Notes: generated from the sequence alone by a model not told the origin. A stretch of 64,000 nt of DNA from Takakia lepidozioides (GCA_030704615.1 CM060731.1:22072001-22136000), one strand, 5' to 3'; positions 1 through 46,709 are shown, counted from the first letter of the stretch. A program made the numbers and translations.

Positions 1-348
1 AATATATTTCCAAATAATAAATCACAAATAAAATTTGAATTATTACACGTGGAGTAGGAAGTGGTTTCAACCACTTCCCATCGATGAGGTGTCTATAACC
101 ACTCACTATGTACCACTGCACTCGTCCACGTGGAATATTATATTTATTAATTAAAATGTATTAGCAAATAAATAATAATAAATAATAATAAATAAAAACA
201 AATTATTACACGTGGACTACTGAGTGGTTGAAACCACTTCCAACCACTGTCTGTGATGCCACCGTGGCATTTCATTGGTGGTTTATAGAGTGGAAAAAGA
301 CAGTAGTGGTTAAAGGGCCAGTGGTTATTCCACGTTTTTCTTCTAGTG
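1..348 (-). mobile_element. CACTA (En/Spm) transposon terminus with subterminal repeats; element continues beyond window start
   Basis: Minus strand from 348 reads CACTAGAAGAAAAACGTGGAATAACCAC. Dense ACCACT/AGTGG subterminal motifs. Matches the TIR at 7162-7189 at 26 of 28 positions. Confidence 0.85.
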
Positions 349-619
349 TGAGCAGTACTCCCTGCCTGCTCAATCAATGACAAGGCCTCATCCTGCCCCA
401 TCATCTCATCCTTGAGGACCTCCTCAACCCGAGAAGAATCCCCAACCTCATCCATCACAGCCGCCTTGGCTCCCAACTCCCTTGAACCTCGAGCACCTCC
501 CACGTGTGCCATAGATGTTTACACCCCGTGGTCCTCACTTGCTCGCCCCCACTCACTACTTGTACCATCTCGGTAGGCAGAGAGACCGTAAAGGGAAGTG
601 CACTCCGCACTCTACGTTG

Positions 620-1580
620 CTCAACCATAGCCAAGCTGATAATCCAGGTCAAGCAATTGAGATCCATCGCTTGCCCCAACACCCGACGACGTGATGCCTC
701 AGAAAGAAAAGGCACCACCGTGGTCCCAGTGGAAAAACCCATAGCCCGCTTTTGCTCGTCGGCATTAGGCTCCACTAACTGCTGCAACTGAGCATCCTAC
801 AGGAGGTCAGGTCCACTATCTCGGAAAGCATGCGATCCTGGGAAGCTGAGCAGTGTAGGTGGTGTTGCTCATGGTTGACCCACCTTGTTGACCACTGCCA
901 AAGGCGAACAGTCATCGTGTCTCACACGCTGAGACTGCCTCCCTGTGTACAAAATGCTATTCACTATGAGGTGTGCAGGCCGCTGCACCCAATCAAATGC
1001 ATGCTTGAACAGTGCGGGTGACATCAAGTTAGTCCACCATAACCGTGGACGATAAGCCTGTAACCCCACTGCAGCTGCATCCAGCAACACTGCTGACCCA
1101 AGCCACGACCAAACTTGATGCACACTGGCCATCACCCTGGCCGGAGAATCGCCCATCAGTGGCACATTCTCCAAGATGTATGCTGGAGATACAACTTGAT
1201 GAAGCTGTAAGTGGCGCAAAACCCGCACCATCTCTCAAAACAGACCCGACCTCGAGTCTCGCAATCCATTGTCATGCCCGGCTGATGAATGCCCTTGGCG
1301 GGGCCAACCTGCCACTACCAGATCAATGGAGCCAACCCACTCCAAATCCTGCGCTCCCAGCAACGAAATGTCAAGTCCTGCTGATATCCACGAACTGCAG
1401 ACACCGGCAACAACTCAGGGTATTGTTGCACCAACTGAGCAACATGGCGTAGGGAGATGCGTCGTGCGGTCTTATCCCTCTCCACATAGAGGTAACGCCA
1501 AACTCTTTACACATGCCTATAGAACAGCAGCCAACTCGGTGCTGATCCCACCAAACAAGTTTAGAAGGCAAATGCCTTCA
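620..1580 (-). pseudogene. C5 cytosine DNA methyltransferase domain (Dnmt3-like) inside the retrotransposon polyprotein, inactivated
   Basis: Motif I LLNLFGGIS (1541-1567); motif IV DLVVAGWPRQGHSSAG (~1280-1325, catalytic Cys position is CGC/Arg); motif VI YILENV; motif VIII AYRPRLWWTN; motifs IX/X KRAMGFSTGTT...RRRVLGQAMDLN. In-frame stops and frameshifts present. Confidence 0.9.
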
Positions 1581-1859
1581 TCCGGACACTGCCACATGAT
1601 CGGTGTGGTATCCAATGGTGACAACTAAGGTGGTCCTGGTGCAATTTCCGTACTGTCCTCTTCTCCTGACGGTACAAACGCCTCTACCCAGGCTTATTGC
1701 ACACGACAATCAGCAACCCGATACAAATCCTTGCTCGAGCCCTACAATGGAGTGTGAGCAACCATGGCAAACAACTACGCCATACCATACATGTCATCAT
1801 GCTCTTCCGAAGGTGACACATCCTCTGAATGAGTGTTGTCATCCAACAACTCTCCAGGC

Positions 1860-2425
1860 CAAGTCACTGCAGCTATGAATGCTGCCAATGTCGGCATCTT
1901 GCCTCGTTGGGCAACCGCAATTCCTCCTATAAACATCATAGGGAGCTGCACATGTCGGCCCTCCCCTGACTGCCCTCCAGGGCTATAGGAAGCTGACTCC
2001 TCCCAAAAATCCAGGGTGAAGCCCATGGGGTACAACACTGCCCCACCAACAAGGACATCGTACGAGACTGTGTCTATCACAATGGCCTTGGCTCTCATCA
2101 CTGAGCCATCTGTAGGATGATCCGGTTGTAGTCTGATAGCCAACTCATGTCGTATCATGCCCCAAGCCTGCTCTGATCATCCCAGAGATGTCTGTATCTG
2201 GAAAGGGCACGGCTCCATATCTGCCTCCATGAGGCCCAAGCCTGCAATAGCAGCTCTGCCCATCATCAATGGCTGAGCTCCCGAGTCCAACAAGACTTGC
2301 AGTGGCCGGTACCTCTTGCCTGCCGGTCCACTCAACCAGAAAAAGCCATCTTCGTTGTCTAACATGACAACTCCAGCTGTCACCATGGCGCGCTCAATGG
2401 CTGACATAGCTGGAAGCTCCGCCAA
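1860..2425 (-). pseudogene. Retropepsin-type aspartic protease of the Gypsy element
   Basis: LQVLLDSGAQPLMMG active-site motif, followed by YDVLVGGAVLYPMGFTLDF (D-x-I/L-L-G-like C-terminal motif). Confidence 0.85.
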
Positions 2426-2840
2426 CCTGGCAGCTGCAGCTTGTCATGGCGCCGCCGTGGCAGTCTTGACCCTCACATCCGAGGATCCCTCCGGCACTAC
2501 ACCGCAGCTGACTCCACTTGCACCAGTGGTACTCCTGCCCCGTACATAGTGGTAGTGGTAGTGCTGCCCGACACTAGTGGTAGTGGTGCCCCACCCACAG
2601 TGGTAGTGGTAGTGGCACCACTCACTAGTGGTAGTGCTGCCTCGCACATGAATCCATGCCTCCCATGTCTCCTCCCTCAGGAGCAGGAGGTGGACCATCC
2701 GGCCTTGGAGCCGGTACCACCTGAGCTGTGGCCATGGCAGCGAGCCTCTGCTCTAGCTGCTGAAGCCGGTTGGCCATGCCTTGGTCAACACCCTGACCTC
2801 CACGTTCTTGGCCATGTTGAGCTTGCCCTTGGCCTGCACC

Positions 2841-4194
2841 TCATGCCTGACCACCTCGTCCTCTCTGTGCTGCTCCACCTCGCCCCCGGCCACCATTGTT
2901 CCCTTGGAACTGGCCTGGGCGCAACTCAGGATGCAAACCATAGAACTGGGCCTCTCCATGCCCGTAGTTGCCACAATGCCCACATTGCAACTGTGCAGGC
3001 TGTGCCGGTGCCAAACCATTGCCTCCCTCTGGGCAATCCTTCTTGACATGGGGTCCTCCACATGTCCAGCACACCACATCCGCCCGTTGTTGGCTTGCAA
3101 ATGAAGGGAGAGACCCCTGCAATCTGAGGTCCTCTTTGCCCTTCCCTGGGCTTCACTTGAGCCCCCTTGTTGCCTTGAGCACATTGAGGTAGTGGCTGGC
3201 TAGGAGCACCACTACCCCGTGGTGCCTCCTTAGCAAATCCCACCATGATCACTCGTTCCTCCACCATGTTGAGCTCTATCCGCACTGCTAGCAAAAACAC
3301 ATTTGCTAAGGTGGGTTGGGCCGCTTGTTGGAGAGTTGCATCTCGCACCGTTCTCCTCAGCTCTTTGTCCAATATCCCATACCAGAATTGGACTGCCTGA
3401 GCCTCCCTAACCCCTTGGGTTACATTTATCAAGCGCCTCATGCGAGTGAAAGCCTCCCTCAAGCTCTCAGTAGGCTTCCGTTGGAACTCTTGCAAGCTTC
3501 TCAACTTCTCTGTCATCACCCCTTGGTAGTTCCTTCTCAACTCTTCGATGAACTCCACAATAGGGTTGAAGGCAGACACCGTCACTAGTGCTGGTGCAGC
3601 AGTAGCTTGGGTGGACGTCGTAGTTGCTGTACCACTAGTCCCACTACTGCTTGTGGAAGCTACTGTTGCACTTGCAGCTGCTGGTGTAGCTGCCGGCGTG
3701 GCTGCTGCCCTTGTGCCTCTAGTGCCTCTAGTGATGGAGACATAGTCGGGTGACCAGTACATCCTCCACTCCTCGATCTCAACATCGTGCCCCCGCCTAA
3801 ACTCATGGTAATCATCCATGGGCGGCCCCTCAAGGTGCTGAAACAGCCCCTTCCATGCCATGAAAGGCGTAAATAGTTGTGGATTGCGCATTAGCTGCAA
3901 GTCACACCAACTATCAAACTCTTGGATAAAATCATCCAACTCAATGGTGCCCACCGCCCCAGAGTACCTTCATGGCCCCTTGGTAGTTCCATACATCTCC
4001 TCCATTGTGTCCCACGACAATGACAAGGAAACAACTTGCACCGCCGGTGTGAGTCCTCCTGATTCACAATCCGAATTAGAACCTTCCATAGAAGACACAG
4101 GAGGTGAAGGTGGCCTAAACCGCACACCTCGTCTCGTATACCCGCTATTATCGCTAGTGCTCGTACCGGCACTTTCCCCAGCAACTAGTGGCAC
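2841..4194 (-). pseudogene. Gag with two zinc knuckles, frameshifted and with stops
   Basis: Retrotrans_gag-like LQEFQRKPTESLREAFTRMRRL. Knuckles CWTCGGPHVKKDC and degenerate CGHCGNYGHGEAQF, then an RGG-rich tail. Confidence 0.85.
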
Positions 4195-5440
4195 CTCCGT
4201 GTTGACAAACTGAAACTCAACTGGTCATGAACCTATCTCTAACACCCTCTCCACAAGGTAACCGGGTATAGAACCTGATGCGGCTTATGGTTTGGAATAC
4301 TAGGTTCCTAACATAGCCTGCACCTGCACCTGCATCCACCGCAGGAACTCCTATGGTTGGTTGGTCATCATCTCCAACCTCACCACAGGAGAAACAAAGA
4401 TGGTCTGACTGGTCATCAACCCAGCCTCACCATCGACAACATGTTCTAGGGTTGAATTGGCGATCAAGCCCGAGTCAACCACCTATAAAATCAAGCGCCC
4501 ATACAAAACTAGCATGACGCACAATTAAGCATGCGGGTGTGGAGGGGATCCAAACACAAGAATGAAAACAACAACTCCCCCACACCAAAAACAACTCCAC
4601 AATGTCGCTCCTGCAACCTAGCCCAAACCCGGACTGACTATTGTCTCCACCTACGGAAATGTCTCGGCCTACAGAGAAGGTGGAAAGCTATGAGGAAGGG
4701 AAACTAAAGCAATGCCTATCCCCAGCACGCTCTCATCCCAACACCTTTTTTTTTTTCTCTTTTCTCTCACTTGCATGACCATGAGAGCATCCTGTAGACA
4801 CTTCTCAAACCGCCCTCCACGAGCTCATGAAACTTGGCCTCCAAGGCCCCATGCAAGCCTCCACAGGGTCTGCCAGTGCCTCTTTATGTCCACCAACCAT
4901 TCCTCAGAATGGAACCACCTTAGGAAACCACACCATTTGCTGAAGGTTAAAAAATGGAGCAAATAGAGGTACATATAGGCCCCAACAACATACTATCCGA
5001 AGGAATTACCTGCAGGCTGGTCTCCCCATAGTTAAGAATTGGGTTTTTTATTTATTTTATTTTATTTTTTTCACTCTGCCTGTTCGCGGCCTTCCGTGGC
5101 TCTAACTGCCACGACTCCTCACAGCCCGCCTAAGGCGCTCGTTGGCCACGGGCTGCCCGTGATACCCTGTGGTACCACGCCCACGAGCCTCCACGGCCCG
5201 CCATCCCCCGATCTGGTCACCGTGCCAACCCGTGGTGTCCGCACCACGGCTTCCAACGGTCACGGTCAACAGTTCCCTGCGTTCCCATGAACTCCACACG
5301 AGTTCTCATGCGTTCCCGAGGCGTCCTGGGCGTTCCCACGCGTTCCTGAGCTCTCTCCGAGCTGGGGTTTGCTCCTACAACTGCTGCCACTGAGTGGAGC
5401 CATCAGCCCCGTTGCCCTGCACTCCTGAGCTCTCATGGCC

Positions 5441-7189
5441 CACTAGAAGCACCCTAAACTCAACAAGCAAGCAATATGCTGCCCAACAAGCTCCATTTCT
5501 TCATGAAGCTCACAAAAACTGTTGGCTATCAGTTTTGTACAATGTGGCCATTTACATGTTGGGTACTTCAAACTATTAGTAGATGCATTGCTAAATGTAA
5601 CTGCTAAGGGGTGTTGGGTGTGATGTTTGCAGGCTGAGAAAGCCACTCTTGATATTGCCACCGACAGTGCACCAACTACGGCGCCTTCAAAAGCAGCCCC
5701 CAAATATCAACCCCCTGCCACAGTGGCAGATATTCTTATGCTACCAAAAGTACTTTGTACTTTGAGTGATTGCTTATACTGGACGGTCCTCATTATCTAG
5801 TTTTCAATGTACATGTAAGTCTTCATGGGTTGATTAATGTGGGTTTTATGGTGGGTGTTGTGTGCAGTTTAAATTGAAGGACAAAATCAGCCTGTATGAT
5901 CCTCATTTACCACGACACAAGGCTGCTTGTGGAATTGTCACTGGTGTGCCTGACAAAGACACATATCATTGCCGTATTATACCTAAAGGATTGTGGTGGG
6001 TTGAGGTGAATGATATCTATATTGCCAATTGTGTCTTGCCTCACCCTAACGAGGAAGAGGTCCCACCGCAAACAATGTTGGAGGATGTCGTCGGTCTGAA
6101 TTGTCTTTGGCCAGAGAAGAACATGAAGAGGGCTTAGATTTCGTTCGTCCGGGCATAGACATTGCTGGCAGTGAGAAGAAGGCAGGAAAGCAGTTCAGTG
6201 TTCCTAGCATGCATATGGAGACGTCGTGTAGAAGTTAGGCTCAGACTTTTATCATGGCTGGATTTTGTTGACAGTGTTCCAACACTTAATTCTCTGGGAT
6301 TCTAGTCTATTTTGTGGAGCTTGAATCCCCAATGGTACTTCTTTCACTACACTAGTGGTATGTGTTCCTCTAGTCATGTTCATAATCACTTGCACATCAC
6401 TGTAATAGTGGTATAATTTAAAACTGTGGGAGTAGCCAAATGCACACAATTGCCTACATTACCACTCGTATAGTGGTATAAGTAGTCACATATATATTAC
6501 TGTATTAGTGGTATGAATTCCTCTAGTGGTATTCCTAAACACTTACACACCACTCTGTAAGTAATCACTCCAATCCATAGTTCCCACTCAGAGAGACACC
6601 ATGAATGACTCAAATAGCTTACACACCACTATGTGGGTAATCATTCTAATGACCTGTTGAGAGACGTCATCCACTCACATAACCACTCTGTGAATGATAT
6701 TGTATATTCTCCATTTTCATAGAATGACTCTATGAGTCATTTTGTGATCACTCAACAAGTGGTTTCGGAAGTCATTGAATATCACTCCATCCATTTCGTA
6801 GCACTGACACATGACACGTGTCCATGCTGAGAGTGTCACCACGTGTCGACATAATCTCCAATATCATCCACGGACCACCGGCTTACACGTCTCCACTACA
6901 AAACGGAAGTGGTTACTTTACCACTATGACACGTCATAAGTGGTTGGTTTACCTCAGTGACATGTCACAGTGGTTAATTTACCACTGTGACACGTCAGCT
7001 AACAGGTGGACCCGGACGTGAGTGGTTCGAACCACCGTCCTTAACCACCGGTGCCACGTAATGTCTTTTACCACTCACTTGTCCTAATGCACTGGTTCTT
7101 CATCACTCTGGGGCCAGAGTGGTTTAGTGTCTTTTACCACTCAAAATGAGTGGTTAACAGAGTGGCTATTCCGCGTTTTTCTTCTAGTG
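5441..7189 (+). mobile_element. 3' part of a CACTA transposon (TnpA-like exon, subterminal repeats, TIR)
   Basis: Ends GTGGCTATTCCGCGTTTTTCTTCTAGTG at 7189, followed by TCA. ACCACT/AGTGG repeats at 6340-7170. Left boundary approximate. Confidence 0.8.
5868..6137 (+). CDS. Terminal exon of a CACTA TnpA/ORF2-like protein
   Basis: Starts after a TGCAG acceptor. The pattern GIVTG...H...IP.G.WWVEV..I....LPHP......T.LEDVVG.NCLWP resembles the C-terminal domain of CACTA accessory proteins. Lies just inside the TIR. Confidence 0.6.
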   Translation, partial: FKLKDKISLYDPHLPRHKAACGIVTGVPDKDTYHCRIIPKGLWWVEVNDIYIANCVLPHPNEEEVPPQTMLEDVVGLNCLWPEKNMKRA

Positions 7190-7589
7190 TCATGAGGTTG
7201 TGGCATAGCAACCACGGGACGCATCTCCTACCTCTAAGTCTGCTGGACTTAAGGTTGCAATTACGGAGGACAATTGGGAGCCTAACATTGGACCCATTGT
7301 CTTGGAGGAGAAAGACAACGTATACGGTGGTTCCTGAGGGCTTACAGGAATTGCTTTGCCTTCAGTTTGAAAGATTTGGGAGCACTGAAGGGTCAGAAGA
7401 TTCATATTGAGTTGGCCACAGACACGCCAATCTTTCGGAGACCCTACAGGTACAGTGACATGGAGAGTTCTTTGATTTAGATGAGGACTCAAGATCTCTG
7501 GGAGGCTGGTTTGGTGGAGCTCTCTGGTGGAGAGTATTCTTTAGCCACGGTGATACCAGCCAAGAAGGATGTCTATGGCAATTGGACGG

Positions 7590-8336
7590 GGGTGAATGCA
7601 GGGTTGACTAGACCAAAATAGACGTTACCGACACAGTTTTAGATGACTGCAATTGATGGTGTCATCAATTGAATTTGAATTGACTCATTAAAACCAGAAA
7701 ATATATATGTCATTGAATTCCTAGCTTCAATACGCACCCATCGCAACTCTTCAATCATGAATCCGATAAGAAATGACTGTGCTATGGACTTTTGAATACC
7801 GTCATTGTGGATTGTTACCGCAGTGAATGGAATTACAATGGACTTAAGTTCTCTTATGTGCCATTGGTGAATTCCATTGAAATTTGGACTTAAGGTGACC
7901 ATTTTGGTCCACATCATAGGTATGGATTTGAAGTGGCAAAATCATTTGTCATTTGACTCATATGGACTAATATATGTCCAAGAAATAGGCGTTTTTTTAA
8001 AAGTCCATAGTTTTATCTTGTTTTTTGGATTTTGGATGTCATTGTTTTTCTAGAAGTATAAAAACCTATAATCTTCAATGGCTAGGTGGCATATTGATTT
8101 TTTTTGTAAACTCTAATTTTTAGTTTTTCATAATTTCTCTAAATAATAGACTAAAATATTTAATGAATTATATCTTTAATATTTGGGGTAGAACTCTTTA
8201 CTAAATATGTTCAGTATACCATTATCTATCACTAAGAAAATATTTTGGATAGTATCATCAATTTTTTGTTTTTTGGTCATGTACTTTCATAGAGCAGGAT
8301 CTGCCGTTTTTGGTCCATTTAACTGTGCAACTACCC
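7590..8336. mobile_element. MITE (~747 bp) with imperfect GGGT TIRs and 4-bp TSD ACGG, inserted in RT
   Basis: ACGG at 7586-7589 and 8337-8340. TIRs GGGTGAATGCAGGGTTGACTAGACCAAAA / GGGTAGTTGCACAGTTAAATGGACCAAAA. Removing it restores the NWT-ERRMCGDY frame. Confidence 0.9.
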
Positions 8337-8619
8337 ACGGAGAGACGTATGTGCGGTGATTACCGGCCTGTAATTCGTCAGACCAAGTCCAATAAGTATG
8401 CCATGCCCACAGCGGAAGAGATCTTTGATGGCATTGGGCATTTCAAGGTATTTAACACTTTGGACTTGCGGTCCGGATATCACCAGTTGCCGATCAGGGA
8501 GGCGGACAAGCAAAAGACGACATTCTGGGGGATCAATGAGCATGGGAAGGATTGCCTATATCAGTGGCGGTTCTTACCATTCGGGCTTAAGAATGCTCCT
8601 ACAAAGTTCCAAAGAGTCA

Positions 8620-9080
8620 TCCCCCTGATAGGTCGTCTCAAGATGGGCGTCGAGGTCATCCTCGCCTTGAGCTCCTGAAAAGCTCGCTCTTGCTCATCTT
8701 CCCACTGCCACTCCTAGTCTACCTTGGTCAGCTTGGTTAGAGCCTTTGCAATAACACTAAATCCCTTGACAAACCGTCTATAGTAGTTTGCCAACCCCAT
8801 GAAAGCTCGAACTCGGCTCACATCAGTGGGGCATGGAATCTGTGCAATGGCCTCTACCTTAGTCTGCTGCACCCCCAATCCTCCAGGATATATCATGTGG
8901 CCCAGATTCTCAATCTGGTTGTGGAGAAACTTGTACTTCCCCGGATGTAATTTCAATCCATGCACTCTCAAGCGCTCAAACACCACCTGAAGGTGTTTCT
9001 TGTGCTCCTCCACCATAGCACTAAAGATGATGATGTCATCTATGTAGCACCGAGCAAAGTCTATCCCTGCTAGAACCCTT
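8620..9080 (-). other. Internally inverted RT segment (YIDD motif through connection domain)
   Basis: Minus strand reads RVLAGIDFARCYIDDIIIFS...FMGLANYYRRFVKGFS...TPILRRPIRG, which fits between plus-strand FQRV and PFQLHTD. Confidence 0.92.
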
Positions 9081-9907
9081 TCAGCTGCATACAGATTGGA
9101 GCATGCTGGGGCTTGGAGCAGTGCTCACACAAGTGGATGATGAGGGAAGAGAGTTCGTACTGGCTTATGCTAACCGCTCGAACAACGCTGTAGAGTCTAA
9201 GTATAGCTCATATGAGGGGGAGTGCTTCGCTCCAGTGTTGGCCGTGGCACACTTCAGGTGCTATCTATACGACAATCTCTTCACCTTTGTCACAGATCAC
9301 CAGCTACTCAAGTGGTTAATGGAGTCAGACAAGCTTACGAGGAAGCTTGCACAGTGGGCACTCATACTCCAAGAATATGACTTTCAGGTTGTGCATCGAC
9401 CGGGTTTGGTCAATAGGGATGCGGATGGATTGAGTCGCAATCCATGCACGAGTCAGCAGGATGATACTGGAGCTCGGTGGCATAATGAGACGAACGAGGA
9501 GATGGTGTAGGGATGACATGCATCTGTTTTTTTGTGTATCTTGACATCGGGAAGTTAGGTTGGACCTACAACATGGATGACTGTAGACGGAGTGTCTGAG
9601 GACCCCGAGGCTAGTGATGAGCCAGGTGGTGCCAAAGATATGCATGAGGATTCGGTTGTGTTGGACTACCTCCACACTGGAGACACTGCAGCTAGTGTGA
9701 CTGCCAAGGAGAGGGATCGGATCCTACAACGAGCCAAGAGGTTCAAGTGGGAGGGGATACACCTGCTTCGAGTGTGGGAGGATGGTCTGGTGAGGATCGT
9801 GCCTCACCCAACACAGCGTGCACGGTTAGTGCGGCAGTTTCATGTGCAAGTATGTGAGTTTGAGAGAGCTTGTGTGCTTATATCTTTCCTTTCTTTATCA
9901 TTGTGAT

Positions 9908-14224: not shown

Positions 14225-14958
14225 GGGTGAGTGCAAACTAAGGTGGCTCAGTTTGGACATCACACTGTAGTTTTTCAGTGAGTGTTTTTCATCTTATCTA
14301 TAACATTGTACAAATAAGTTTATTTCATTCCAAATGAGATTGAATGTTGATAGCCATTTACCAGATGTATATGTTGGTATGATTATTTTGCAAGTTTAGA
14401 TGATTTTTCATGGAACTATAGACTTTTTAGGATTTGCACTTTGGGCTATCACATTTCCAGTTTGTCCACAATTGGACTCTCAAACACTAACTTGCACTTA
14501 GCCATTTTACACATGGACTCCGAATATAGATTACCGTTGAGGAATAAGAGACATGGATGAATTTGTAGACAATTTCATTTATTTATTAGTGTGCTATGGA
14601 CTTTTATACACCTCCAAATATACCCAAAATTTCAAAAGTCCATGGTATTAAAAAAATTTCATATTTTGGTAGAACTCTTCGATGACAATATAAAGATTGT
14701 CATTATCTGCAAGTTCTTATAACTGGATAGACAAATGTCCTCTAGAATTGGGGACCTACAAATTAGTTATTTTTTTAATCATGGAATAATATTTCTAATA
14801 AAAAATATCTCGGGATCCCTTTACTAAAAATGTTAGGCATATCATTATCTATCAATGTAAAAATAAATTGAACAAAAAACATAAATTAATTTTTTGCCAA
14901 TAGACTTTCATGGAGGTCACATTTGCCATTTTTGAGCCACTTGATCTTGCACTCACCC
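14225..14958. mobile_element. MITE (~734 bp), same family as 7590-8336, 4-bp TSD ATAT
   Basis: TIRs GGGTGAGTGCAAACTAAGGTGGCTCA / GGGTGAGTGCAAGATCAAGTGGCTCA. ATAT at 14221-14224 and 14959-14962. Shared internal TTTACTAAA.ATGTT...CATTATCTATCA. Confidence 0.9.
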
Positions 14959-15969: not shown

Positions 15970-17220
15970 TATGCGAGAAGAATGATGAAGGTCAGAGGGG
16001 TTAGAAAGGAGCCAGGTCGCTGCTGCATTGAGATTTGCAACAGGGTGCACACCTTCGCTGTAGATGACAGGTTGCATCCCAGAATTAAGGAAATCCATGC
16101 TGAGCTGAGAAGATTGTCTGGGCAGATGACAGGAGGCGGGGTATGTGCCTGACACGTGCTTTGTATTTCATGATGTGGGGAAGGAGGAAAAGGAATTTTC
16201 TCTTTGCCACCACAGTGAGAAGCTGGCCATTGGTTTTGGGCTGATCAGGTTTGTGTGTATTTGCAGTGCGTGTGCAAGCCTGGCAGCCCTGGAGAAGGGC
16301 AAAAAGGTGCATGGTTGCATTGCCAAAGCTGAAATTGTACCAGATGTGATTATGAACAATACCCTCATGGACATGTATGCCAAATGTGGGAGCATTGAGG
16401 ATGCGGAGGGAGTGTTCTTGCTTGCAGGATATGCCAGCAGGGGCGCAGGATGGAGGCCTTGGAGACCTATGAACAAATGCTGGGGAAAAGGTGAAGTGCA
16501 ACCACATCACGTTTGTGTGCATTGGCAATGCTTGTGCAAGCCTGACAGCCCTGGAAAAGGGAAAAGTGTGGGTCCAGATTCAGCAGCAGCGGCACAATTC
16601 ATAAAATCAGGCACTGCTAATGAAGACACCTTCTTCAAAACATTTCACCCTGTTTTCCCCTCTTATCGAAATCGTCCTTAAATTTTCATGTTCATTTCTG
16701 CAAGTTACTGGTTGAGTAAACCTTTGATAGTTTGCTGAGATGTGGTGTCGTGGAACTCGATGCTTGCAGGGTATGCACAGCAGGGGCACTGGATGAGGCT
16801 TTGGCACCAGATGTTGTGTTTGGCACACTATGTAAATCCACTAAGACCAGGGAGTAGTTGAGCAGCTCAGTCTGAACCCTTTCCTAGTGCCAACAAACTC
16901 TGATGTGGATTCACGCCAAGAAAGGTCTGGAAGCTAGAAAGCAGGTGCACACTCACAAACATCGCATGGTATGCACAGCAGGGACGTGGGATGGTGGATT
17001 TGGAGACCTATGATCAAATTATGGGGGAAGGGGTGAAGCCCAACCACATCATGTTTTTGTGTGATTGCAATGCTTGTGCAAGCCTGGCAGCCCTGGAAAA
17101 GGTCAAAAGAGGTCTATGGTGACATTGTCAAAGCTGGAATTGTACCAGATGTTATTCTGAACTCTGCCCTGGTGGACATGTATGCCCAATGTGGGTGCAT
17201 TGAGGATGCAAAGCAAGGAA
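15970..17220 (+). pseudogene. Scrambled PLS-class PPR / E+ / partial DYW fragments
   Basis: PG box KEPGRCCIEICNRVHTF, YVPDT...[13 protein letters not shown], then out-of-order PPR motifs ([31 protein letters not shown]). Frameshifts present. Confidence 0.88.
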
Positions 17221-23562: not shown

Positions 23563-24535
23563 TGTTGAAAGTCAGCTCAGATTTAGTTAACCATTGGGAC
23601 TGTTAGCTAGGGTTCTGTTAGGGTTTTTTGATGGCTAGGGATGGTTCCCACCAGAACGTTCCGGCAGAAGGTTCCAGCGAACCTGTGTAGGATTTAGGGA
23701 AGGGCTGAGGCAATGCCCAGCATTTCTTCTGGCCTAGTAGATTGCAGAGAGGAGGAGGAGAAGTCCAGCATCTACAGTAAACTCTATAATTAGCTTTCTT
23801 TTGTAGAAGGGAGCAAGGGAGCCAGTTGTCTGATCTTGTTAGTACTAACTAATTCCGGTATTATTCAGCTGTCAAGCTTTTGTACTGCTGCTTGTGAATA
23901 GAAGCTTCCTGTCAATATCTCTAGAGTGAGGACAGGTCTAGTTTTCTAACAGTTTATGGGCCCACAAGACGTTACAACTACTTGGAGAGTTGAGCCGACT
24001 GATGAGCCTTCAGAGGATGACTTGAAGGATGCCACGTGGAAGCAAAAGAATGAGGCATATGTGATGGTGAACATGAGATCAGAGGTGATAGAGTTGGTAA
24101 GGGGCCTTAAAATTGCTCATGAGGTCTCGCAGAAGTTAGACAAACTGCACCAGACAGATGTGGTAGGGCAAATGCTTGCCTCATGGAAACAGCTCATGAA
24201 CATGAGAATGGGAGAATGTGAGAGCATATCTGCTCACATTGCAAAGGTTAGAGGCATGTGTATGGAAATAGTTGCTCCAGAAATAGTGAGTTGCTTCGGA
24301 TCATGACCTTGTTGGCACCTTGCCAAAGAGTTATGACATGGTGCAAAGCTCGTTGTCTACTCATGCTGACTTAGAAGTTTGTCACTGGACAACTTCTCAT
24401 GGAAGAAAACAAGCTGAATAGGAGTAGCTCAAGTATGGACAGTGCTCTCATGGCTACCTCCACCAAGAAAGAGAGGGCATGCTTCCGATGTGGCAAACTT
24501 GGCCATTTCCAAAAGGATTGCAAGGTCAACAAGTG
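23563..24535 (+). mobile_element. Ty1/Copia remnant: 5' LTR (23563-23951), half-tRNA-Met type PBS, decayed gag
   Basis: TGTTGAAAG...TTTCTAACA termini; GTTTATGGGCCCA at 23952-23964; UBN2-like gag (MRMGECESISAHI) and knuckle CFRCGKLGHFQKDC. Confidence 0.85.
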
Positions 24536-24559
24536 GAGAACACTGATTTTCCACTTCAT

Positions 24560-24905
24560 TCACAAATTTCTTGAACGCCTCCAGCACTTGAAGAGAAAGG
24601 AGTACAAGAATGTCTTTCTACTCATGTCATCAGTGAAGGTGATAAAGTACCTAGATCCTCCCAGTGATGTTGTCTTCATGGGCCCAGACACATCTGCATG
24701 TATCAACTCCAGCCTTTCCTTGGCTCTTGTGGTGGATTCCTTGGGCATTGGGGACTTGTGCTGTTCCCTTTAGCACATCCTTCGCAGAACTGTAGCTCGT
24801 GTGACCAGTCCACCTTCAGCCCCAATGCCAATTTTTAAAGGTCCTTGACCCAACCTTCTATGCCACAATGGTGTAGTGTCCATTGTGTCCCCAACATAGG
24901 CCTCC
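24560..24905 (-). pseudogene. Copia GAG-pre-integrase/integrase fragment, opposite orientation to the adjacent gag
   Basis: LWHRRLG, CEGC, LELIHADVSGPMKTTSLGGSRYFITFTDDMSRKT. Confidence 0.88.
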
Positions 24906-28699: not shown

Positions 28700-31600
28700 T
28701 TAGAGTTGGAAAAACCGGCGCCGAGCATGCTGCTTTTGGCCCCAGGTGTCATGGAAGTCTTGAAGCAATTTCCTCCCTCGCTGCTCCGAAGTTCTGGAAA
28801 CAGCTACACAGACAGTTAACCAAGCCTTCCGCCCCTCAGTCAACAGATCTTGGTAAGTATTGAATAATACCGATCTGCCCCTGGGGGGTTTTCCCTCATA
28901 AACCCAATCACATCTTGTTTTCCATAAGTTCCACAAGGTAAGCGCTCTAAGAGCAGCCCAAACCAGGCAGATAGTTTGCACTTGACCCACGGTGAAATTC
29001 AGAAGCAACAGAGAAGGTGGGGGGGGGGGAAGAGGGGAAGCTATTCCACCAGGAGTAGAAACCAAGAACCAAGTGCCAGACTCTAAACAGCCAAATTGCA
29101 AAACATCAGGCAATGTTCAATGGATTCGGGAGAAGAACCACACAGAGAGCAGTTAGGGTTGTCTTCATGGGTGCGTTCTCTGACTGGAAGAATTCTATGC
29201 AGGATTTTCCATAGAAAACCGGATAGCATGGCTGGTCTGTCTTTTCTCCATATGTCTCTCCAGATTTTGTCCCATCATTGGTGGTCTAGCAACGGGATGC
29301 CCCATTTTGCTTTCCACTTGAATTCAAATGAACGGGGGGGTTTAGGAGGGAGTATCTTTTTTTCACGGAGTACGCAAAGAAAGGGGTCTTTTTCTATCCA
29401 TCCCTCCCTGGGATCAAATTGCAGGTCTACTAGTGGGCAGCTCAGAAACCAGGTGAGGTTTTCTTGTCCCGCCCATTGGGTCTCCATACCTTGCGGGGGC
29501 AGCGGGTTTGGGTTGCCCAGATTATCCAGAACTCTGATGTGAAAGAGGTCAGCTTTATCTGCTTCCATTCTTCGTTGATACTGAAGAAGACCATCTCCAT
29601 CTGCAGAAAAACCCAGACCTGTTGCTCTAACACCTTGGCAGGCTGTGACCAGCATGACCGGGGTCTGAATCTGCTGACTAGTGGCCATCCAAGTGGGTAT
29701 TTTTATGACCAATGCATCAGCGAGGAGAGGTTCCATGTACTGAGGCACATTTGCCAGAATGGTGTCCCAGGTTTTAGCTCTTCTGTGCCCAACCATGGTG
29801 GCGACTTGTGCCTTGGATAAGAACTGATGATGATAGCGCATGTTTGATATGTGCGTGAATCCTGTCTGCTCCCAAAAAGCCCACTGCGGGGCCTGCGAAA
29901 GAAGAATGTCTGAATCCATGTTATAATTAGCAAAAACAGGCTGTCTCAAACACTCCTGGTGAGTCAGAGGCATTCGCTGCGTGAGATTGCCTCTCACGCC
30001 ATGCCAGGCCCTCCATATGGACTGCCATGGTTTGGAGCCCAAGGAAATAGGCCCTTCTTGATGGGGCCGCAGAAGTAGCTCCCCATATGAAATTACGATT
30101 GAGCGCCTTAATTTCTTTGACCATGTCCTCATCTGGGTCCCAAAACTGCCGTAGAAAACCACATTGATGCCACCAAAACCTGGTTAGCAACTAAAGCTCT
30201 ACCCACAATGGAGAGCATTGCAGCACTCCAGAATGCCGGGTTTTTTTTTAGCCTAGCAATCACATCCTTGAAGCGGTCATGATTTGACATGTTGAGACCT
30301 ATTTGATGGCCCAGCAGCTTGTGCGTTCGGCCCTCTTGCAGCCACCCAAGACCCATGTCTGCCCCCCATGGCTGACAATGGCTTGTCGTTGCCTCATTAT
30401 GCAGCTTGGACAAAATGCACATTGATTTTTTTCAATTGACCTTGAGCCCTGTAGCCAAACAGAAGGTGTGGAGAATTTGAAGTGCCTTGTCAACGTTGGC
30501 CTTAGTGGAGTTGTCCAACAATAGAGTAGTGTCATCTGCATACATTGAGAGTTTCAGCATCTCCGGGGTCAGTGTGGGCAAGTGAAGGCCAATGATGTCT
30601 TGCCTGTAGTGCAACATGTGACCCAACGAGTCCGCCGCTATGAGGAAGAGGAAGGGTGCCAGGGGGCAACCCTGCCGCACCGATCTAGAAATGTGAAAGG
30701 GCTTCAATATAACCCCATTAACCATGACCTTGCTGGATGTTGCATGCAAGAGGATGTGGACCCATGTCAGGAAGGGCCCCCCAAACCCTGATTTCTCCAT
30801 AGCCCCTTCCAGAAAGGTCCAATCAATGGAGTCAAAGGCCTTTTCAAAATCAAGCATTAAGAAGGCCAGCGGCTGGCTGTTTATTTCTGCTCTGTGGAGG
30901 GCCTCGTGGGCCAGCAAGATGTTGTCTAAGATCATGCGATCTTTGAGAAAGCCAGTATGCTCTTTCCTAATAATTTTCGGCAGGAGAGGCTGCAACCTCA
31001 AGGCCAAGGTCTTTGCGATAATCTTGTAAGTTGAGTTTAGCAAAGTGATTGGCCGGTAGTTGGCCATATCTTCTCTATCTCATTAAAGACTAGAGTAATG
31101 AGACCTTCCGCCATCTGCGAGGGCATTATCTGTTTTACTATAATATCATTAGCCATAAGGAGGAAGTCCTCCCCAATTGTATGCCATAGTGCTTTAAAAA
31201 GTTCAATTGGGAGACCATCCAGTCCTGGCGACTTTTGTGATGCCAAAGAGTTGACCGCCTGCCCCAATTCATACACTGACAGGGGGGCTGCCAGGTTTGA
31301 TTTGTCCAGTTGAGAGATCGAGGAGGGGATGTGGTGCAACAAAGCCGCAGTTGCATCTTGTTTCTGCTGCGAGGCATCTCGCCTTTGAAACAGAGCTTGA
31401 AAATATGAGGCTGCCACTTCTGCCATGATTTTTGGCTTATCTACCAAACGTCCATCTGCATCTCGCAAAGCTGGGACCATTGTGGCAGCTCGCCACTGCG
31501 CAGCCTTAACAAAGAAATATCTACTCATTTTCTCCCCTTTAAGGCTCCAATTGACTCCAGCTTTGACTCTGGAGAATTGCTCCTTGGCGTGTAATAGCAT

Positions 31601-32677
31601 GGAGAGATTCCTCTTGGCATCTTTGTAAGCAGTTATGGTGTGTGCTCCCTCCAAACCCGACTGCAGTTTGAACTGGCAGACTTCCAAGCACTTAGTCAGA
31701 GCCTTTTGCCTTCTCGTATTGTCCTTTGCCTTTTCCCTTGCCATGACTTTACAAAGGTCTCTTAAAAGTTCCATCTTCGCCAAGAATCTGGCAGTGGGAG
31801 AGACAAGCTGTGTGGTTGCCGATTCCCAGACATTCTGAAGGGTCTGTACGACGATGGGGTCCTGCAATATGCTTGGGTTTAGCTTGAAAAAACCCCTGCC
31901 TCTCACTCTGGACCCTCGGGGTGTTGAGCATCAGTTGCACCATGGCATGGTCAAACTCCGGGAGGATAGGCTGCAGCGGGACACTGGTTGACCAAGACTT
32001 TAGAGTGTAGGAGCAATAAAATTTGTCCAACCGAGCCTGGCATAGGTGAGGGGGGTCCTTGTTGTTCGACCAAGTGAATTTCAATTCTCCCTGGCTTGGA
32101 GACGAAGCGTCGAGCGGCCCCACTAGCAAGCACAAGGCATCCCAGGTGTTCTTTTCTGTCATGGAGAGACCATTCACCAATCTCCCAAGCCTGTCTCTTT
32201 TTTCCTCCACCATATTGAAGTCGCCGCCTACCAGCCAGTGCTGGAGATGATGTCACTGCTGCATGTTACATCTGATCTGGTTCCAGAGGTCTATCATGTC
32301 TTCCTCCCCATTTGGAGCATAGATGTTTAGAAAACCCACTTGCCCCATTGATTGACCTATGTTCAAGACAAGAACTGCACTCTGCCTTGCAACCAGATCT
32401 CATGGGAGACAATGGATTGTTGTAAGGAGGGGGAAGCAAGGATGGCTGTGCCCCCTCTGGAATCCGAGATGGTGGGATTCCAGAAGGTTGTGACCGCTGG
32501 CCAAATGGAGGCACCAAGGGAATTAATTTTTTGTTGATTTAATTTATGTTCTTGCAAAAAGATAATATTGGAACCACGTAACAGAGTGGAGGCCCGGGCT
32601 CTGACCCTTGCCCTTTTGGGGGCAGAGTGGTCAGAGCCAAGACCTCGCACATTCCAGGAGACAAGAGACAAATTCAT
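28700..32677 (-). pseudogene. LINE ORF2: APE endonuclease, reverse transcriptase, zf-RVT
   Basis: SWNVRGLG, IIFLQEHK, ARLDKFY, FDHAMV; KSPGLDG, NYRPITLLN, LDFEKAFD, VRQGCPLAP, YADD; LWNLWKTRC. Multiple frameshifts. Confidence 0.95.
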
Positions 32678-33975
32678 GTGGATGTGACTATCAGGCCCAC
32701 GCTCTTTGCGTGACTTGATGGCCATTGTAGGAGGAAGAAATACTTTGAACGCTTGTTGGCTGGTGGCGGGGTGGTGAACCACTTAAACCCTTGTGGAGGA
32801 TTGATCAAAACAAGGAGATGATAGGTGAACACAATCGTTGCCTTTTTTCGTTTGCAGTTGTTTTGAAAAGGTACGAAGTGGGTCCCTCCGTCTCTAAGAA
32901 TTGAAAACATGTCTGCAGAGATGTCCCAGGCTAGAGCTTTTGAAAGGCGAGAGAGGGATTGTGGGGAGGATGGAAGGCCTGCTGAGTTCCACCAGGCTGG
33001 CAGGATTTTCTGCTTATGAACATTGTCCAGCAACAAAGTCCGTACCCGTTTACAGTCTGAGTGGTCAAGCACATAAAAGAAGAGGGGGGAGCACGCAATA
33101 GAGATGCTCACCTGTGGGGGTGAGTCCACTGTCTCTTCTGTTAGCAGAAAGGTGATGGCGGGATCTGCTGCAACATTTGAGGATGTATTGAAGTGATTTG
33201 TGTTTGCCAGCACCAATTGCGTGTTGAGATTTGGCTCCTGCTGGGGTTGCCCTGATTCCGTCTGAGGATGTAGCAGCTGGTAATGCTCATCTACCAGCTT
33301 GGAACCTACCTCCATTTTTTTTGTGCCTCTTGCCCACTCAGTTGGGTCTTTGACTCTGCAAGACAGGTAGTGCTTACTCACCCAAATCAATGAGTTATGA
33401 GCCCCAGAGGTATCCAAGCCCCTACCAAAAATAACGGGCATGACATGAACAACAGCAAGATCTGGAAGAGAGGCAAAATTTTCAACCATTATGCCAATGT
33501 GCTGCATATGAGATAGAGTCAGGTTCAGTTTTGGAAAGAAGTCATTGAGAATGTTTTGCATGAGGGTCAATGCAAGCTCTCTTTCTTTCCCGATGCCGAA
33601 CTGAAGAGCCAGGGCTTCTGAAACCCATGTAGACCAGAATCCTTGCTTCACACTTGGCATGAAGAAACTGGTGTAATCATCTACAAAATTGTAGAGCAGG
33701 GGGGTGACACATATTGCCGCCTTTTCTCTCTGAAATGAGGAACCTGGTTCCCACCCTGGCAGGGGACTGAGCTTGAAAGAATGCAACTCCAGAATCGTTA
33801 TTGCCACGCTGGTAGAGTCTAGCTGCTGCATATCAGAGACTGAGAAAGGGAAGGAACCCCAAGCCTCCATGATGCGCACTGGGAAGAAGCCCGACCCTGT
33901 TGGTTTAATGGGGGACTCCACTTCAATCAATACTGAGCGTCTTTTCCTTATCTTGGAATGAAGCATGTCAACCAT
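32674..33975 (-). CDS. 433-aa open frame of unknown function between LINE ORF1 and ORF2 (separate ORF or frameshifted ORF1 C-terminus)
   Basis: Uninterrupted ORF. Its TGA (32676-32674) overlaps the ORF2 ATG (32677-32675). Confidence 0.65.
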   Translation of the reverse strand: MVDMLHSKIRKRRSVLIEVESPIKPTGSGFFPVRIMEAWGSFPFSVSDMQQLDSTSVAITILELHSFKLSPLPGWEPGSSFQREKAAICVTPLLYNFVDDYTSFFMPSVKQGFWSTWVSEALALQFGIGKERELALTLMQNILNDFFPKLNLTLSHMQHIGIMVENFASLPDLAVVHVMPVIFGRGLDTSGAHNSLIWVSKHYLSCRVKDPTEWARGTKKMEVGSKLVDEHYQLLHPQTESGQPQQEPNLNTQLVLANTNHFNTSSNVAADPAITFLLTEETVDSPPQVSISIACSPLFFYVLDHSDCKRVRTLLLDNVHKQKILPAWWNSAGLPSSPQSLSRLSKALAWDISADMFSILRDGGTHFVPFQNNCKRKKATIVFTYHLLVLINPPQGFKWFTTPPPANKRSKYFFLLQWPSSHAKSVGLIVTST

Positions 33976-36605: not shown

Positions 36606-38902
36606 TGCTTACCGAAGTTGCGGTGGATGTAGATAGGAATGGAGGGAGAGAGGAGGTTACACATGCCTTCCCGGAACATGATACTTGCACCTGGCGCCAG
36701 AGTGGAGGTGAGTACGAACGACCCCGGATTCGAAGGGGCGTGGTTTGAGGCTAGAATTGTTTTTTATGAAGAAGAGAGTCACCGTTGCAGGGTTCGTTAC
36801 GAGCAGCTGCTTGATGAAAATTACAAGATGTTGGAGGAGTGGGCTGACCCAGATCTCTTACGACCAATTCCCCCTTCCCTAAACATATTTCAGTGGGAAA
36901 CTGGTGACCCAGTGGAGGCCCTTGATAAAGATGGCTGGTGGGCAGGCAAGGTGATCTGCAAAATGAATGAAGAGCTCTACAAAATCGGATTCGCACAAAA
37001 CGAAACGTTGGACTTGATTGTCCCCAAAATTCGCACACAGCAAGACTGGGTTGATGGCGCATGGTCCATTGCGAGAGGGTCAATCACCAGTCCTTCCAGT
37101 GGACCTTGGGAGTCCATGTTTGCATATGGAGATCAGAAGGGCCACGAAGTGATGGATAGTGTGACTGGCTCTAAGGCATTGAAACAGCCCAATGCGAGGA
37201 AACAATACAAAAAGAGGATACCCAAAAGGCCCACAGTCAGGAAGGACCAGCCTGCAAGCAAGCAAAAAAGAAAAGGTACCCTATATTATCACCTTTCTTC
37301 TTGTGTGCCATGTGGTGCATCAGTGTTATTTCTAATAGTGTTTATAATTCATCCATGCCATTCACTGAACCAAAAGTCAACTGATAGACTTTGAAATCAG
37401 GTGCAGGACCTGGTAGATCACTTGAAAAGAAGCAAAAGGAGACTGTGGATGCCCTGGAGACAGAGGGGACAAGGGGGACAAAGCATTTGAGTCCCACCTC
37501 ACCATTGTGTGCACTCAGTTCGTCACCTTCCGACAAGACTGCACAAGGGTTTAGTAAGCATAGGCGGGACATTGGGGCTGATTTGGGTGTTTCCAGCAAT
37601 GGCTCTTCAGCATTGTGTAAGACCTTCTCAGAATTCACAAGAAGCCTCAGTGCATCACCAGATGGAATTTCCATAGATGCCAACAACACAGACAAGGTAA
37701 CAAGATTCAATTTCTACTGTACATGGTGCCATCGATTGAGTGATAATCCTTTTTGGCTTCAAGATGTTCCCATTTAGCTGAATTGCATGCTGTTTAATTG
37801 AGCTATTCATGTCAGCGTTTGTAGCATTCGTCAAATTTTTCTTCTTGGAAAATGTGGTGGAAAGGTGGAGAAAATCAAGCTTGTTGCACACCTAGGATTT
37901 TTGAGGGTTGTGCATGTGCACATGCCTCTCCATGATTTTGAAGAAGCCAAAACATCCATTGAAAAAATTACAGCCTATCCCACATTGCCAGCAAGCGAAC
38001 TCATTGTCCGAGTTGCTCAATAATGCGATAATAGTACTTTCAGATTGAGATTTGCTCTAAGGGTTGCAACATCTCTCAAACTGTGGTCTGTTTTTGGGTG
38101 GTTTGGATGACAGGCAACACAGTTGGAGCAAGTGGCATATGTTGCAGTTTTGACGGCCATGCGAGCGCGGTCCAACATGGTTACTTGGAAGGCGCAAGCG
38201 TTTCTACTCGACCTACGTGAGGCACTTCACCTCACCAATGAGGACCACCTACGTTTGAGTAAGTTACAATTTCTTGACGATAGTGGCTCTGGTATATAAT
38301 ATGTTGGAGAATCCGACAAGCTTCGCTTGTGTCATATGTTCACAAGCCTAGGAGATGCTCCACAAGACAGGAGATTGAATGCCCATAATTGATTGGCTTT
38401 CCCTGAAAGGTAGTAAGTCCTAGGGGCACCAAAAGGATCCATACTTTTTATATCAACCCCACATTTTCTGCTTTGATAGACTTGTGAAAATGGCACAACA
38501 TATTTTTGAAACAACAGGAGATGGGGGGTTGGTGGTTATTTGACGATGGATAGCGCAATGATGATCACTCCTCAGAATGTCAAGCTCAACGTCCCTGTTG
38601 CTGTCTACATCGGCAGATATTTCGGCATTTTTTTTTCCTTGTGCCAAAGTACTCTAATATGGGTCGGTGTACCTTTCTAAGCTTTCATCAAACTTCAAAA
38701 GAAGTGTTGTGTTGAACTCTGCAGCAAAGCTCAGGAACCATCATTTTGTAGCTCATACTTGGAAAGTCCTGAACCGTACCATTGGCATTGTCGTCCCCAA
38801 TGTTGTATCTGAATACCAAGCTTTTGTTGGTTTCAAGTAGATGGGACTCCGACTCCACAGAAGATCTCCATGTCTGTGTGTAAGTTTGTATTATATTTTC
38901 CC
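36606..38902 (+). repeat. ~2.3-kb direct duplication, second copy at 44155-46452
   Basis: Near-identical sequence at an offset of ~7549 bp, introns included. Confidence 0.97.
36639..38299 (+). CDS. Agenet (plant Tudor) x2 + C-terminal ENT domain protein, copy 1; exons 36639-37275, 37401-37696, 38114-38299
   Basis: GARVEVSTNDPGFEGAWFEARI, LLRPIPP, GDPVEALDKDGWWAG, RTQQDWVDGAW; ENT LEQVAYVAVLTAMRA...TWKAQAFLLDLREALHLTNEDH. GT-AG introns keep the frame. Confidence 0.88.
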
Positions 38903-43470: not shown

Positions 43471-44187
43471 AAGCTATGCAGGTTGACTTCTACTGAGCAG
43501 TCCTGACTCATTCCTTTCTAGATTCTAGATTCTTGACTGCTAGTTGCTTGCACATAAATGCTTAAAGATGATATTTTCATCCAAATGTGACTTTCTACAT
43601 CCATATTGTACATGGTTCAGGGTTCCAATGTGCCCTAATTGGCTCCCTTCTCTCTCTCGTCGTTTTCTCCTTCCCCAAGCCCTTGATGAATTAACCAAAC
43701 CTTTCACAGATCGAAGACCTCCAGACCTGCACCAGAAAAATCATTCTTCATCTTTGCATGGCTTTGTGACTGAGTTACAACGTCACTGGTGTCTGCCTGT
43801 GTGGTTGAAGAGGACTGAGAAGCGAACAGGCCAGCGAGTGATGAAACTTGGTCTCTTGTGCCTCTTGCAGATGACACTCCACTCTTCATCTTTGCAATTT
43901 TTCTGACTGTCTGATGGCGTCACTAATGTCTGATTGTAGGTGTGAAGAGCAGAAACTGTACTTTTCACCTGTGACGACTTGCACTTCTGCTGTACCAGAC
44001 ATAGTTTGTGACAGATGCTCAGCAGCTCCAGTCTTCTTCTTCTGAGCAACTTTTCTCTTCTTTGCAGGGCTCGGTGACGGATTCATGATATCACGAATGT
44101 GTACTGCCTGTGAAGACGAATTTGGAGCAGGTCCAGTCTTCTTTTGCCGGGCTTTGCTTACCGAAGTTGCGGTGGATGTAGATAGGA

Positions 44188-45848: not shown

Positions 45849-46709
45849 TATGTTGGAGAATCCGACAAAGCTTCGCTTGTGTCATATGTTCACAAGCCTA
45901 GGAGATGCTGCACAAGACAGGAGATTGAATGCCCATAATTGATTGGCTTTACCCTGAAAGGTAGTAAGTCCTAGGGGCACCAAAAGGATCCATACTTTTT
46001 ACATCAACCCCACATTTTCTGCTTTGATAGACTTGTGAAAATGGCACAACATATTTTTGAAACAACAGGAGATGGGGGGTTGGTGGTTATTTGACGATGG
46101 ATAGCGCAATGATGATCACTCCTCAGAATGTCAAGTTCAACGTCCCTGTTGCAGTCTACATTGGCAGATATTTCGGCATTTTTTTTTCCTTGTGCCAAAG
46201 TACTCTAATATGGGTCGGTGTACCTCTCTAAGCTTTCATCAAACTTCAAAAGAAGTGTTGTGTTGAACTCTGCAGCAAAGCTCAGGAACCATCATTTTGT
46301 AGCTCATACTTGGAAAGTCCTGAACTGTACCATTGGCATTGTCGTCCCCAATGTTGTATCTGAATACCAAGCTTTTGTTGGTTTCAAGTAGATGGACTCA
46401 GACTCCACAGAAGATGTCCATGTATGTGTGTAAGTTTGTATTATATTTTCCCTATAATTCCAACACGGTCTTAGTGGTGAAAAAAAATGTCAATATCATA
46501 TGATAATTTTTTATATATCACACGTACAAGATTGATATTGTTTTTGGTCATCACCAGCTAATATGACAAGCACACTGATGCACTGGGTGTTTTTAACGCA
46601 CAATCTTTGTGTGGAGGCGCTACGAACCTATGAAAGAACAATTTTCACACGACTACTGTTACAAAAACGTTAGGTCAAAAGTTCGAGATGTCACCATTCG
46701 AAACTGTAA

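Follow-up and report, generated by a model that had tools for sequence, protein, structure and literature searches.

A split retrotransposon was analysed in a window of Takakia lepidozioides DNA (the whole stretch of 64,000 nucleotides, GCA_030704615.1 CM060731.1:22072001-22136000). Near the left edge of the window lies a predicted Gypsy-type retrotransposon with a C5 DNA methyltransferase (DNMT) domain, and with moderate confidence it is regarded as one copy that was split at the triplet TCA by two ends of a CACTA transposon and of which the 5' half was inverted, the insertion probably coming first and the breakage and rejoining afterwards. The two halves lie on opposite strands in the assembly, 352-4005 on the minus strand and 7193 onward on the plus strand. 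Most simply, this arrangement is read as the entry of a CACTA element into a TCA that lay between the DNMT part and the reverse transcriptase (RT) part, the 5' half now being turned the opposite way. The evidence comes from the CACTA termini with the triplets beside them, and from the junction of the same two segments in other copies of the family. The split target-site duplication lets the history of a nested transposon be recovered, and the prediction made from it held against the other copies.

CACTA termini and flanking triplets

The plus strand reads GTGGTTATTCCACGTTTTTCTTCTAGTG at 321-348, and the string at 7162-7189 on the same strand is identical to it except for two mismatches (26/28). 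The terminus of 28 nt was searched over the 64-kb window with up to three mismatches allowed and the result was compared with 100 shuffles; two matches were obtained in the window and none in any of the shuffles. Both termini end in ...CTTCTAGTG, the reverse complement of which starts with CACTAGAAGAAAAACG, and their likeness by BLAST reaches 45 nt at 84% (305-349 against 7149-7190). The original prediction, which had been made from the sequence of the window, had claimed two near-identical terminal inverted repeats (TIRs) of 28 bp in the same orientation, ending at 348 and 7189, and these were recovered. The triplets following the termini also read as it had stated, TGA at 349-351 and TCA at 7190-7192. 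They are mutual reverse complements, a match for which the odds by chance are 1 in 64.

The motif GTGGT/ACCAC reaches 28.7 per kb within 1-348 and 27.0 per kb within 6301-7189, while the remainder of the window has about 2 per kb, and the left piece holds an internal direct repeat (13-78 against 177-241, 79% alike). The CACTA-type termini, the TIRs, the 3-bp duplication and the subterminal repeats are all present, and the two pieces are CACTA (En/Spm) ends. For the right piece no second terminus was found within the window; the piece is one-ended (fractured), as an element once broken should be. In 5036-6137 the open frames gave no Pfam match and no homologue, and no transposase was recognised in the parts inside the window, most of the element lying outside the window or being absent, and a metagenome scan for the CACTA terminus returned 0 matches.

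The string CACTAGAAG at 5441 was considered as the left end of a complete CACTA element of 1.75 kb and was rejected. Just 9 of the 28 terminal letters agree there, the preceding triplet is GCC instead of TCA, the subterminal motif is at background level (2.3 per kb in 5441-6300), and a contig of another copy passes through 5398-5503. The open frame at 5838-6137 was likewise discarded as the end of a CACTA gene, having no Pfam match even at an E value of 10 and no homologue among longer proteins. The features of the locus are summarized in Table 1.

Table 1. Features of the split retrotransposon and of the CACTA pieces, in window coordinates. PR, protease; RH, RNase H.
Feature	Position	Strand	Remarks
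CACTA terminal region A	1..348		TIR 321-348; subterminal repeats fill 1-320; continues beyond the left edge of the window
TGA, reverse-complement copy of the 3-bp target-site duplication	349..351		the 3 letters fit either side in the joint of 349 with 7193
5' coding half of the predicted Gypsy-type retrotransposon	352..4005	-	gag 4005->3133; zinc knuckle 3110->2724; PR and DNMT 2401->494; tail to 352
5' non-coding part of the retrotransposon	4006..4780	-	high-copy like the coding part to about 4745; other copies alike to at least about 4775
Interval containing the inversion breakpoint, where the retrotransposon side meets the CACTA side	4781..5640		contig depth and loose ends
CACTA terminal region B	5641..7189	+	subterminal array 6301-7161; TIR 7162-7189; no opposite terminus in the window
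TCA, target-site duplication in the original orientation	7190..7192
Retrotransposon continuation	7193..7585	+	TAG 7206-7208, then pre-RT stretch and RT N-terminus; one-base frame change about 7303
Private insertion	7586..8336		751 bp, imperfect 32-nt inverted ends
RT fingers/palm part	8337..8621	+
Second small inversion, RT palm/thumb (YIDD region)	8622..9079	-	in place; seen in this copy only
RH and stretch before integrase	9080..9860	+	family likeness ends about 9836-9860

Organisation of the retrotransposon

The coding parts were compared by tblastn with gene models of Marchantia polymorpha, and the DNMT frame was translated with stops as X before the comparison with Pfam. The gag part matched the Marchantia models at 57% over 296 aa and the aspartic protease region with DNMT at 49% over 649 aa, while the pre-RT stretch with the RT N-terminus (7307-7588) matched relatives at 67% over 94 aa. 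The profile PF00145 matches 455-2200 on the minus strand with an E value of 3.1e-8 (33.8 bits against a curated cut-off of 22), thereby supporting the DNMT identity that had been assigned earlier; the RT and RNase H assignments are supported in the same way by profile and tblastn matches. The tail after the DNMT is weakly conserved and extends to 352. The translations underlying the original prediction were reproduced: the minus-strand translation of 518->351 ends in ...SLIEQAGSTA, the plus-strand translation from 7191 reads HEVVA*QPRDASPTSKSAGLKVAITEDNWEPNIGPIV..., where the asterisk denotes a stop, and the translation from 7307, shifted by one base, contains the pre-RT sequence ...RWFLRAYRNCFAFSLKDLG....

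The order gag-PR-DNMT-RT-RH(-INT), where INT denotes integrase, is found in the full-length metagenome relatives P0015, P0016 and P0018 and in Marchantia P0005, and gag, PR, RT and RH stand in that order here after both inversions are undone. From this order in the relatives, the element is predicted to be a retrotransposon of the Gypsy type in which a C5 DNA methyltransferase domain stands between the protease and the RT. The integrase is present in the full-length relative P0016 and was not found anywhere in the window. No direct or inverted repeat partner that would mark a long terminal repeat (LTR) was found within the window for 4006-5640, which, the 3' end of the copy being missing, is a weak statement on the family, and no primer-binding site was recognised by eye. 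The window holds 135 tblastn hits to the retrotransposon family, none of them beyond 9900.

Among proteins, the element is best matched by models of Marchantia polymorpha, Calypogeia fissa and Sphagnum fallax. When the DNMT of Marchantia P0002, the closest relative, was compared with solved structures, DNMT3A came first (E 1.7e-8), and the E values for the DNMT3A, DNMT3B and DNMT3C chains ranged from 1.7e-8 to 1e-6. The decayed DNMT of the window itself gave weak matches to M.HhaI (E 0.02).

Junction of the two halves in other copies

Five sequencing runs containing parts of positions 1-9900 were found, X1 to X4 belonging to one sample and X5 to another study. Logan contigs of X1, X2, X3 and X5 were aligned to window positions 1-9900 at 80% likeness, and a second, finer alignment covered 4350-5650. 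The alignment revealed a joint between 349 and 7193, on opposite strands and with three shared letters, in seven contigs from three runs (one in X1, two in X2 and four in X3), together with a variant joint between 362 and 7190 in two contigs of X1. Further contigs leave the window sequence with loose ends before 349 (35 in X1 and 8 in X2), and the consensus of these ends is the reverse complement of 7193-7222, with 27/30 and 24/30 letters in agreement. In other copies of the same genome, the DNMT tail passes directly into the pre-RT stretch via a single TCA. The original prediction had set its own check beforehand, namely that the DNMT and RT segments should adjoin in other family copies, and this check was passed by the seven contigs with the joint and the 43 contigs with loose ends.

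The triplet TCA stands once in the other copies and twice here, one for each CACTA end. With the inversion undone, the locus is a textbook CACTA insertion with a 3-bp duplication, and its structure reads ...DNMT tail-TCA-[CACTAG...CTAGTG]-TCA-pre-RT.

Stop codon ahead of the RT part

The original prediction had further held that the DNMT and RT halves were one polyprotein. That they formed one element, in which they are neighbours throughout the family, was borne out, but a single open frame was not, as an in-frame TAG stands at 7206-7208, five codons beyond the junction. The consensus of the other copies has this stop as well. The frame after TAG continues into the RT in the other copies, and here it changes by one base near 7303.

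In relatives, 74-96 residues separate the motif MDLNCLTW from the end of the gene model, and the virtual frame of the window would end after about 110. The ends of the models are ...LEQVS, ...LQCVA and ...LEEVS in Marchantia, ...LEVVV in Calypogeia, ...PEGVA in a JGI protein and ...PDVAK in a Logan protein; the frame in the window ends in ...HEVVA*. The models ending at the matching place are P0002, P0003, P0008, P0033, P0034 and P0035, with a tail like ...E-V-V/A-A/S/V. The models that bridge the DNMT and the RT (P0004, P0005, P0009 and P0014) all omit the stretch with the stop. The shared TAG, the matching model ends and the omission of this stretch by the bridging models make it likely, though indirectly for the relatives, that a stop has been conserved between gag-PR-DNMT and RT-RH-INT. 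The RNA fold after TAG (7203-7300) was no better than shuffles (z = -0.75) and gave no signal of a read-through structure. A conserved stop would bear on the amount of methyltransferase relative to reverse transcriptase in such elements.

Breakpoint, order of events and alternative explanations

The breakpoint of the inversion is bracketed to about 4.78-5.64 kb. The contig depth in X1 is about 100,000-600,000 up to about 4745, falls stepwise to 4880 and then remains at 3,000-55,000 to 5650, and this low plateau (4880-5650) is of the same order of depth as the CACTA part. Two places, near 5.32 kb and at 5.04-5.08 kb, are weakly indicated: two X1 contigs turn unlike the window after 5315 and 5319, one X5 contig does so before 5324, and the bin 5274-5317 has the lowest depth; an AT tract at 5039-5077 was masked in the contig alignment. 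The original prediction had placed the breakpoint inside the CACTA element at about 5.4 kb. This position falls within the bracket, but no clear break was seen there and the string at 5441 discussed above is no element end. An inverted AT-rich match between 170-208 and 5033-5070 was considered as the site of recombination and was rejected, being of low complexity (E 0.65) and having CACTA-type repeats that continue to the left of 170.

According to the favoured reading, the CACTA element would have entered the TCA that separates the DNMT part from the RT part, duplicating this triplet, and two breaks would have followed later, one inside the CACTA element and one 5' of the retrotransposon. Rejoining, presumably by end joining, would then have flipped a segment of more than 5 kb. 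The insertion would in this way have preceded the inversion, and the left and right CACTA pieces would add up to one element. Both halves are taken to come from one copy, since it is very unlikely that two copies were hit at one triplet with complementary halves adjoining.

Several observations weigh against this sequence of events. The remainder of the left CACTA piece lies beyond the edge of the window, and it is from the two visible pieces that we infer a single element. Neither joints nor a dominant loose end were found in 4350-5650. Among the contigs listed, none was shown to bridge the junctions of this very copy (348/349, the breakpoint and 7189/7190), contigs from so frequent a repeat being too short to vouch for them. 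The run from the other study, X5, has no joint of 349 with 7193 among its 1,161 aligned contigs, a number too small for this absence to count either way. The second inversion at 8622-9079 in the same copy may reflect a more complex event or trouble in the assembly.

If the assembly is at fault, the true locus would be a plain CACTA element nested in the retrotransposon, a segment having been flipped by the assembler in a very repeat-rich region. The retrotransposon is indeed very abundant, with a summed word depth in X1 of about 0.2-0.9 million over 331-4620 against 18,000-49,000 over the CACTA part; the best run contained just 45% of the sampled words of 1-9900; and both the second small inversion and the missing bridging contigs would suit an artefact. 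On the other side, the window has no ambiguous bases (0 N), a flip demands two false joins, and no inverted repeat that could mislead an assembler links 4.8-5.6 kb with another part of the window, the best candidate being a low-complexity AT tract of 41 nt (E 0.65). An artefact of assembly is judged distinctly unlikely. It is hardly credible that the halves stem from two different copies, each hit independently by a CACTA element at one and the same TCA, or that a nested structure was duplicated in inverted form and then lost parts by deletion. The genome has repeated copies of both families, and the window alone cannot prove a shared history of the halves; independent hits at one triplet with exactly complementary halves adjoining would however be a large coincidence, and no other piece of the retrotransposon family is present in the window, as none of the 135 hits lies beyond 9900.

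The inversion and the target-site duplication could also have arisen in one step through the transposase, by alternative transposition of reversed ends, which is considered possible though unlikely. Two facing CACTA termini upstream of an intact retrotransposon, for example those of one whole and one fractured element, would be excised jointly and inserted into TCA, and everything from the right-hand terminus to the target would be flipped. Worked out on paper, this course yields the same structure, namely termini pointing the same way, TCA with its reverse complement and a one-ended element between them, and the right CACTA piece is indeed one-ended. Termini of one family in the same direction, each beside one of two target-site copies that are reverse complements of each other, are what reversed-ends transposition leaves behind; the locus shows them, but a plain later inversion leaves them too, and the window sequence does not separate the two courses. 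Alternative transposition requires two suitably oriented termini beforehand and is less economical than an insertion followed by an inversion. As far as the accounts in PMC1592236 and PMC12312487 go, the mechanism is well founded for maize Ac/Ds and has been put forward for Arabidopsis VANDAL elements, and the latter source cites a Vandal-linked knob inversion on Arabidopsis chromosome 4. No case of such an inversion in CACTA elements was found in the portions of the literature covered by a limited search. An extended form of the idea, in which the TGA/TCA split would be the scar of a one-step inversion by the CACTA transposase and the host element would belong to a bryophyte DNMT3-Gypsy lineage with a conserved stop, making methyltransferase in excess over RT by read-through, is judged distinctly unlikely.

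Decay of the retrotransposon copy

The stops, the frame changes, a lost catalytic motif, an insertion, the second inversion and the want of an integrase indicate that the retrotransposon copy is dead. The DNMT half holds 12 in-frame stops in 582 codons, and all 12 breaks are stops without a change of frame. Frame changes were located near 482 (about 480-500) and near 7303. The change near 482 is common to most other copies, the differing variant making up 3% of the depth in X1, 7% in X3 and 14% in X5. Read by eye, the copy has PRQ in place of the PCQ of its relatives, which we take, after M.HhaI, to be the catalytic motif.

Joints that skip 751-752 bases at the private insertion (7586-8336) were found in 20 contigs of X1, 13 of X2, 12 of X3 and 1 of X5. 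The ends of this insertion (7587-7618 and 8308-8339) form an inverted repeat, 72% complementary, and four letters fit both sides of the joint; by its structure the insertion resembles a DNA transposon of the non-autonomous kind. Towards its right end, 8196-8320 shares 70% likeness with 14819-14942, and a second copy may sit near 14.8 kb.

The second inversion, of 458 bp, is seen in the tblastn match running 9082->8597 on the minus strand and in the match of PF00078 on 8714-9124 (minus). Joints of 8620/8621 with 9076/9079 on opposite strands, coming from other copies, were present in 22 contigs of X1, 9 of X2, 15 of X3 and 2 of X5, and no inverted repeat was seen by eye at the edges of 8622-9079. 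Behind 9836, loose ends of 44 contigs in X1, 28 in X2 and 2 in X5 continue with a different sequence that they share.

The differences of this copy from the others in X1 were A>G 160 and T>C 180 against G>A 99 and C>T 79. Where the copies differ within 1-9900, A/T here against G/C elsewhere is about twice as frequent as the reverse. This excess of A/T is consistent with decay by deamination.

Other features of the window

The DNA of the window is nuclear and from a plant; besides several transposons it contains fragments of PPR/DYW, mitochondrial carrier and fasciclin genes. A 2.3-kb sequence is present in two direct copies (36606-38902 and 44155-46452) that are 98.3% alike and lie 7.5 kb apart, each with an open frame bearing an Agenet domain (E 4e-18); either a duplication that happened recently or the LTRs of a young element may lie behind them. 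Tandem units of about 200 bp, 80-88% alike, are common to 16088-17210 and 57900-59540, and they overlap a DYW-deaminase fragment (16130-16678) and PPR repeats (58234-59539). A Copia-type gag with a zinc knuckle lies at 23950-24770 on the plus strand, and a long interspersed nuclear element (LINE) with RT and endonuclease domains lies at 30435-32782 on the minus strand.

Comparison with known systems

The two CACTA pieces resemble CACTA (En/Spm) elements in their TIRs of 28 nt starting with CACTA, in a 3-bp target-site duplication confirmed by empty sites and in their dense subterminal repeats. They differ in that the parts within the window have no recognisable transposase and in that just two one-ended pieces are present.

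Murine leukaemia virus reads through the stop in gag-UAG-pol, and the pea Ogre elements carry an intron between the protease and the RT. Here too, a stop parts the upstream frame from the RT frame, and both are in register in the family. The present element differs from both in that its upstream frame carries the protease and the DNMT as well; a read-through signal was not found in the fold after TAG.

The inversions linked to Ac/Ds in maize and to the Vandal knob are alike to the present one, each end of the inversion having a transposon terminus beside one copy of a split target-site duplication. They differ in that the transposons are hAT and Mutator-type there and CACTA here, where the data are accounted for no less well by a plain inversion at a later time.

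The KnitGypsy-Dnmt3 elements of the charophyte alga Klebsormidium nitens are Gypsy LTR retrotransposons with a DNMT3-type domain, as outlined in de Mendoza et al. 2018 (PMC5890265), and a 2026 preprint calls such elements streptophyte 'Gypsy-DNMT3' (10.64898/2026.05.21.726589). No paper describing DNMT-Gypsy elements in liverworts or mosses was found in the literature searched, supplements aside. The element of the window differs from KnitGypsy-Dnmt3 in that its host is a bryophyte-like land plant, in that its DNMT lies between the protease and the RT with the frame stopping before the RT, and in that LTRs were not found here; it is alike in having a predicted C5 DNA methyltransferase domain inside a Gypsy-type coding region. 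DNMT-Gypsy elements, in print for Klebsormidium, are abundant in this bryophyte-like genome and are also represented by unnamed models in Marchantia, Calypogeia and Sphagnum. Plant genomes rich in repeats commonly show one dead transposon inside another and a local inversion that followed, and the element analysed here is a further member of the DNMT-Gypsy group within such an ordinary rearrangement of nested transposons.

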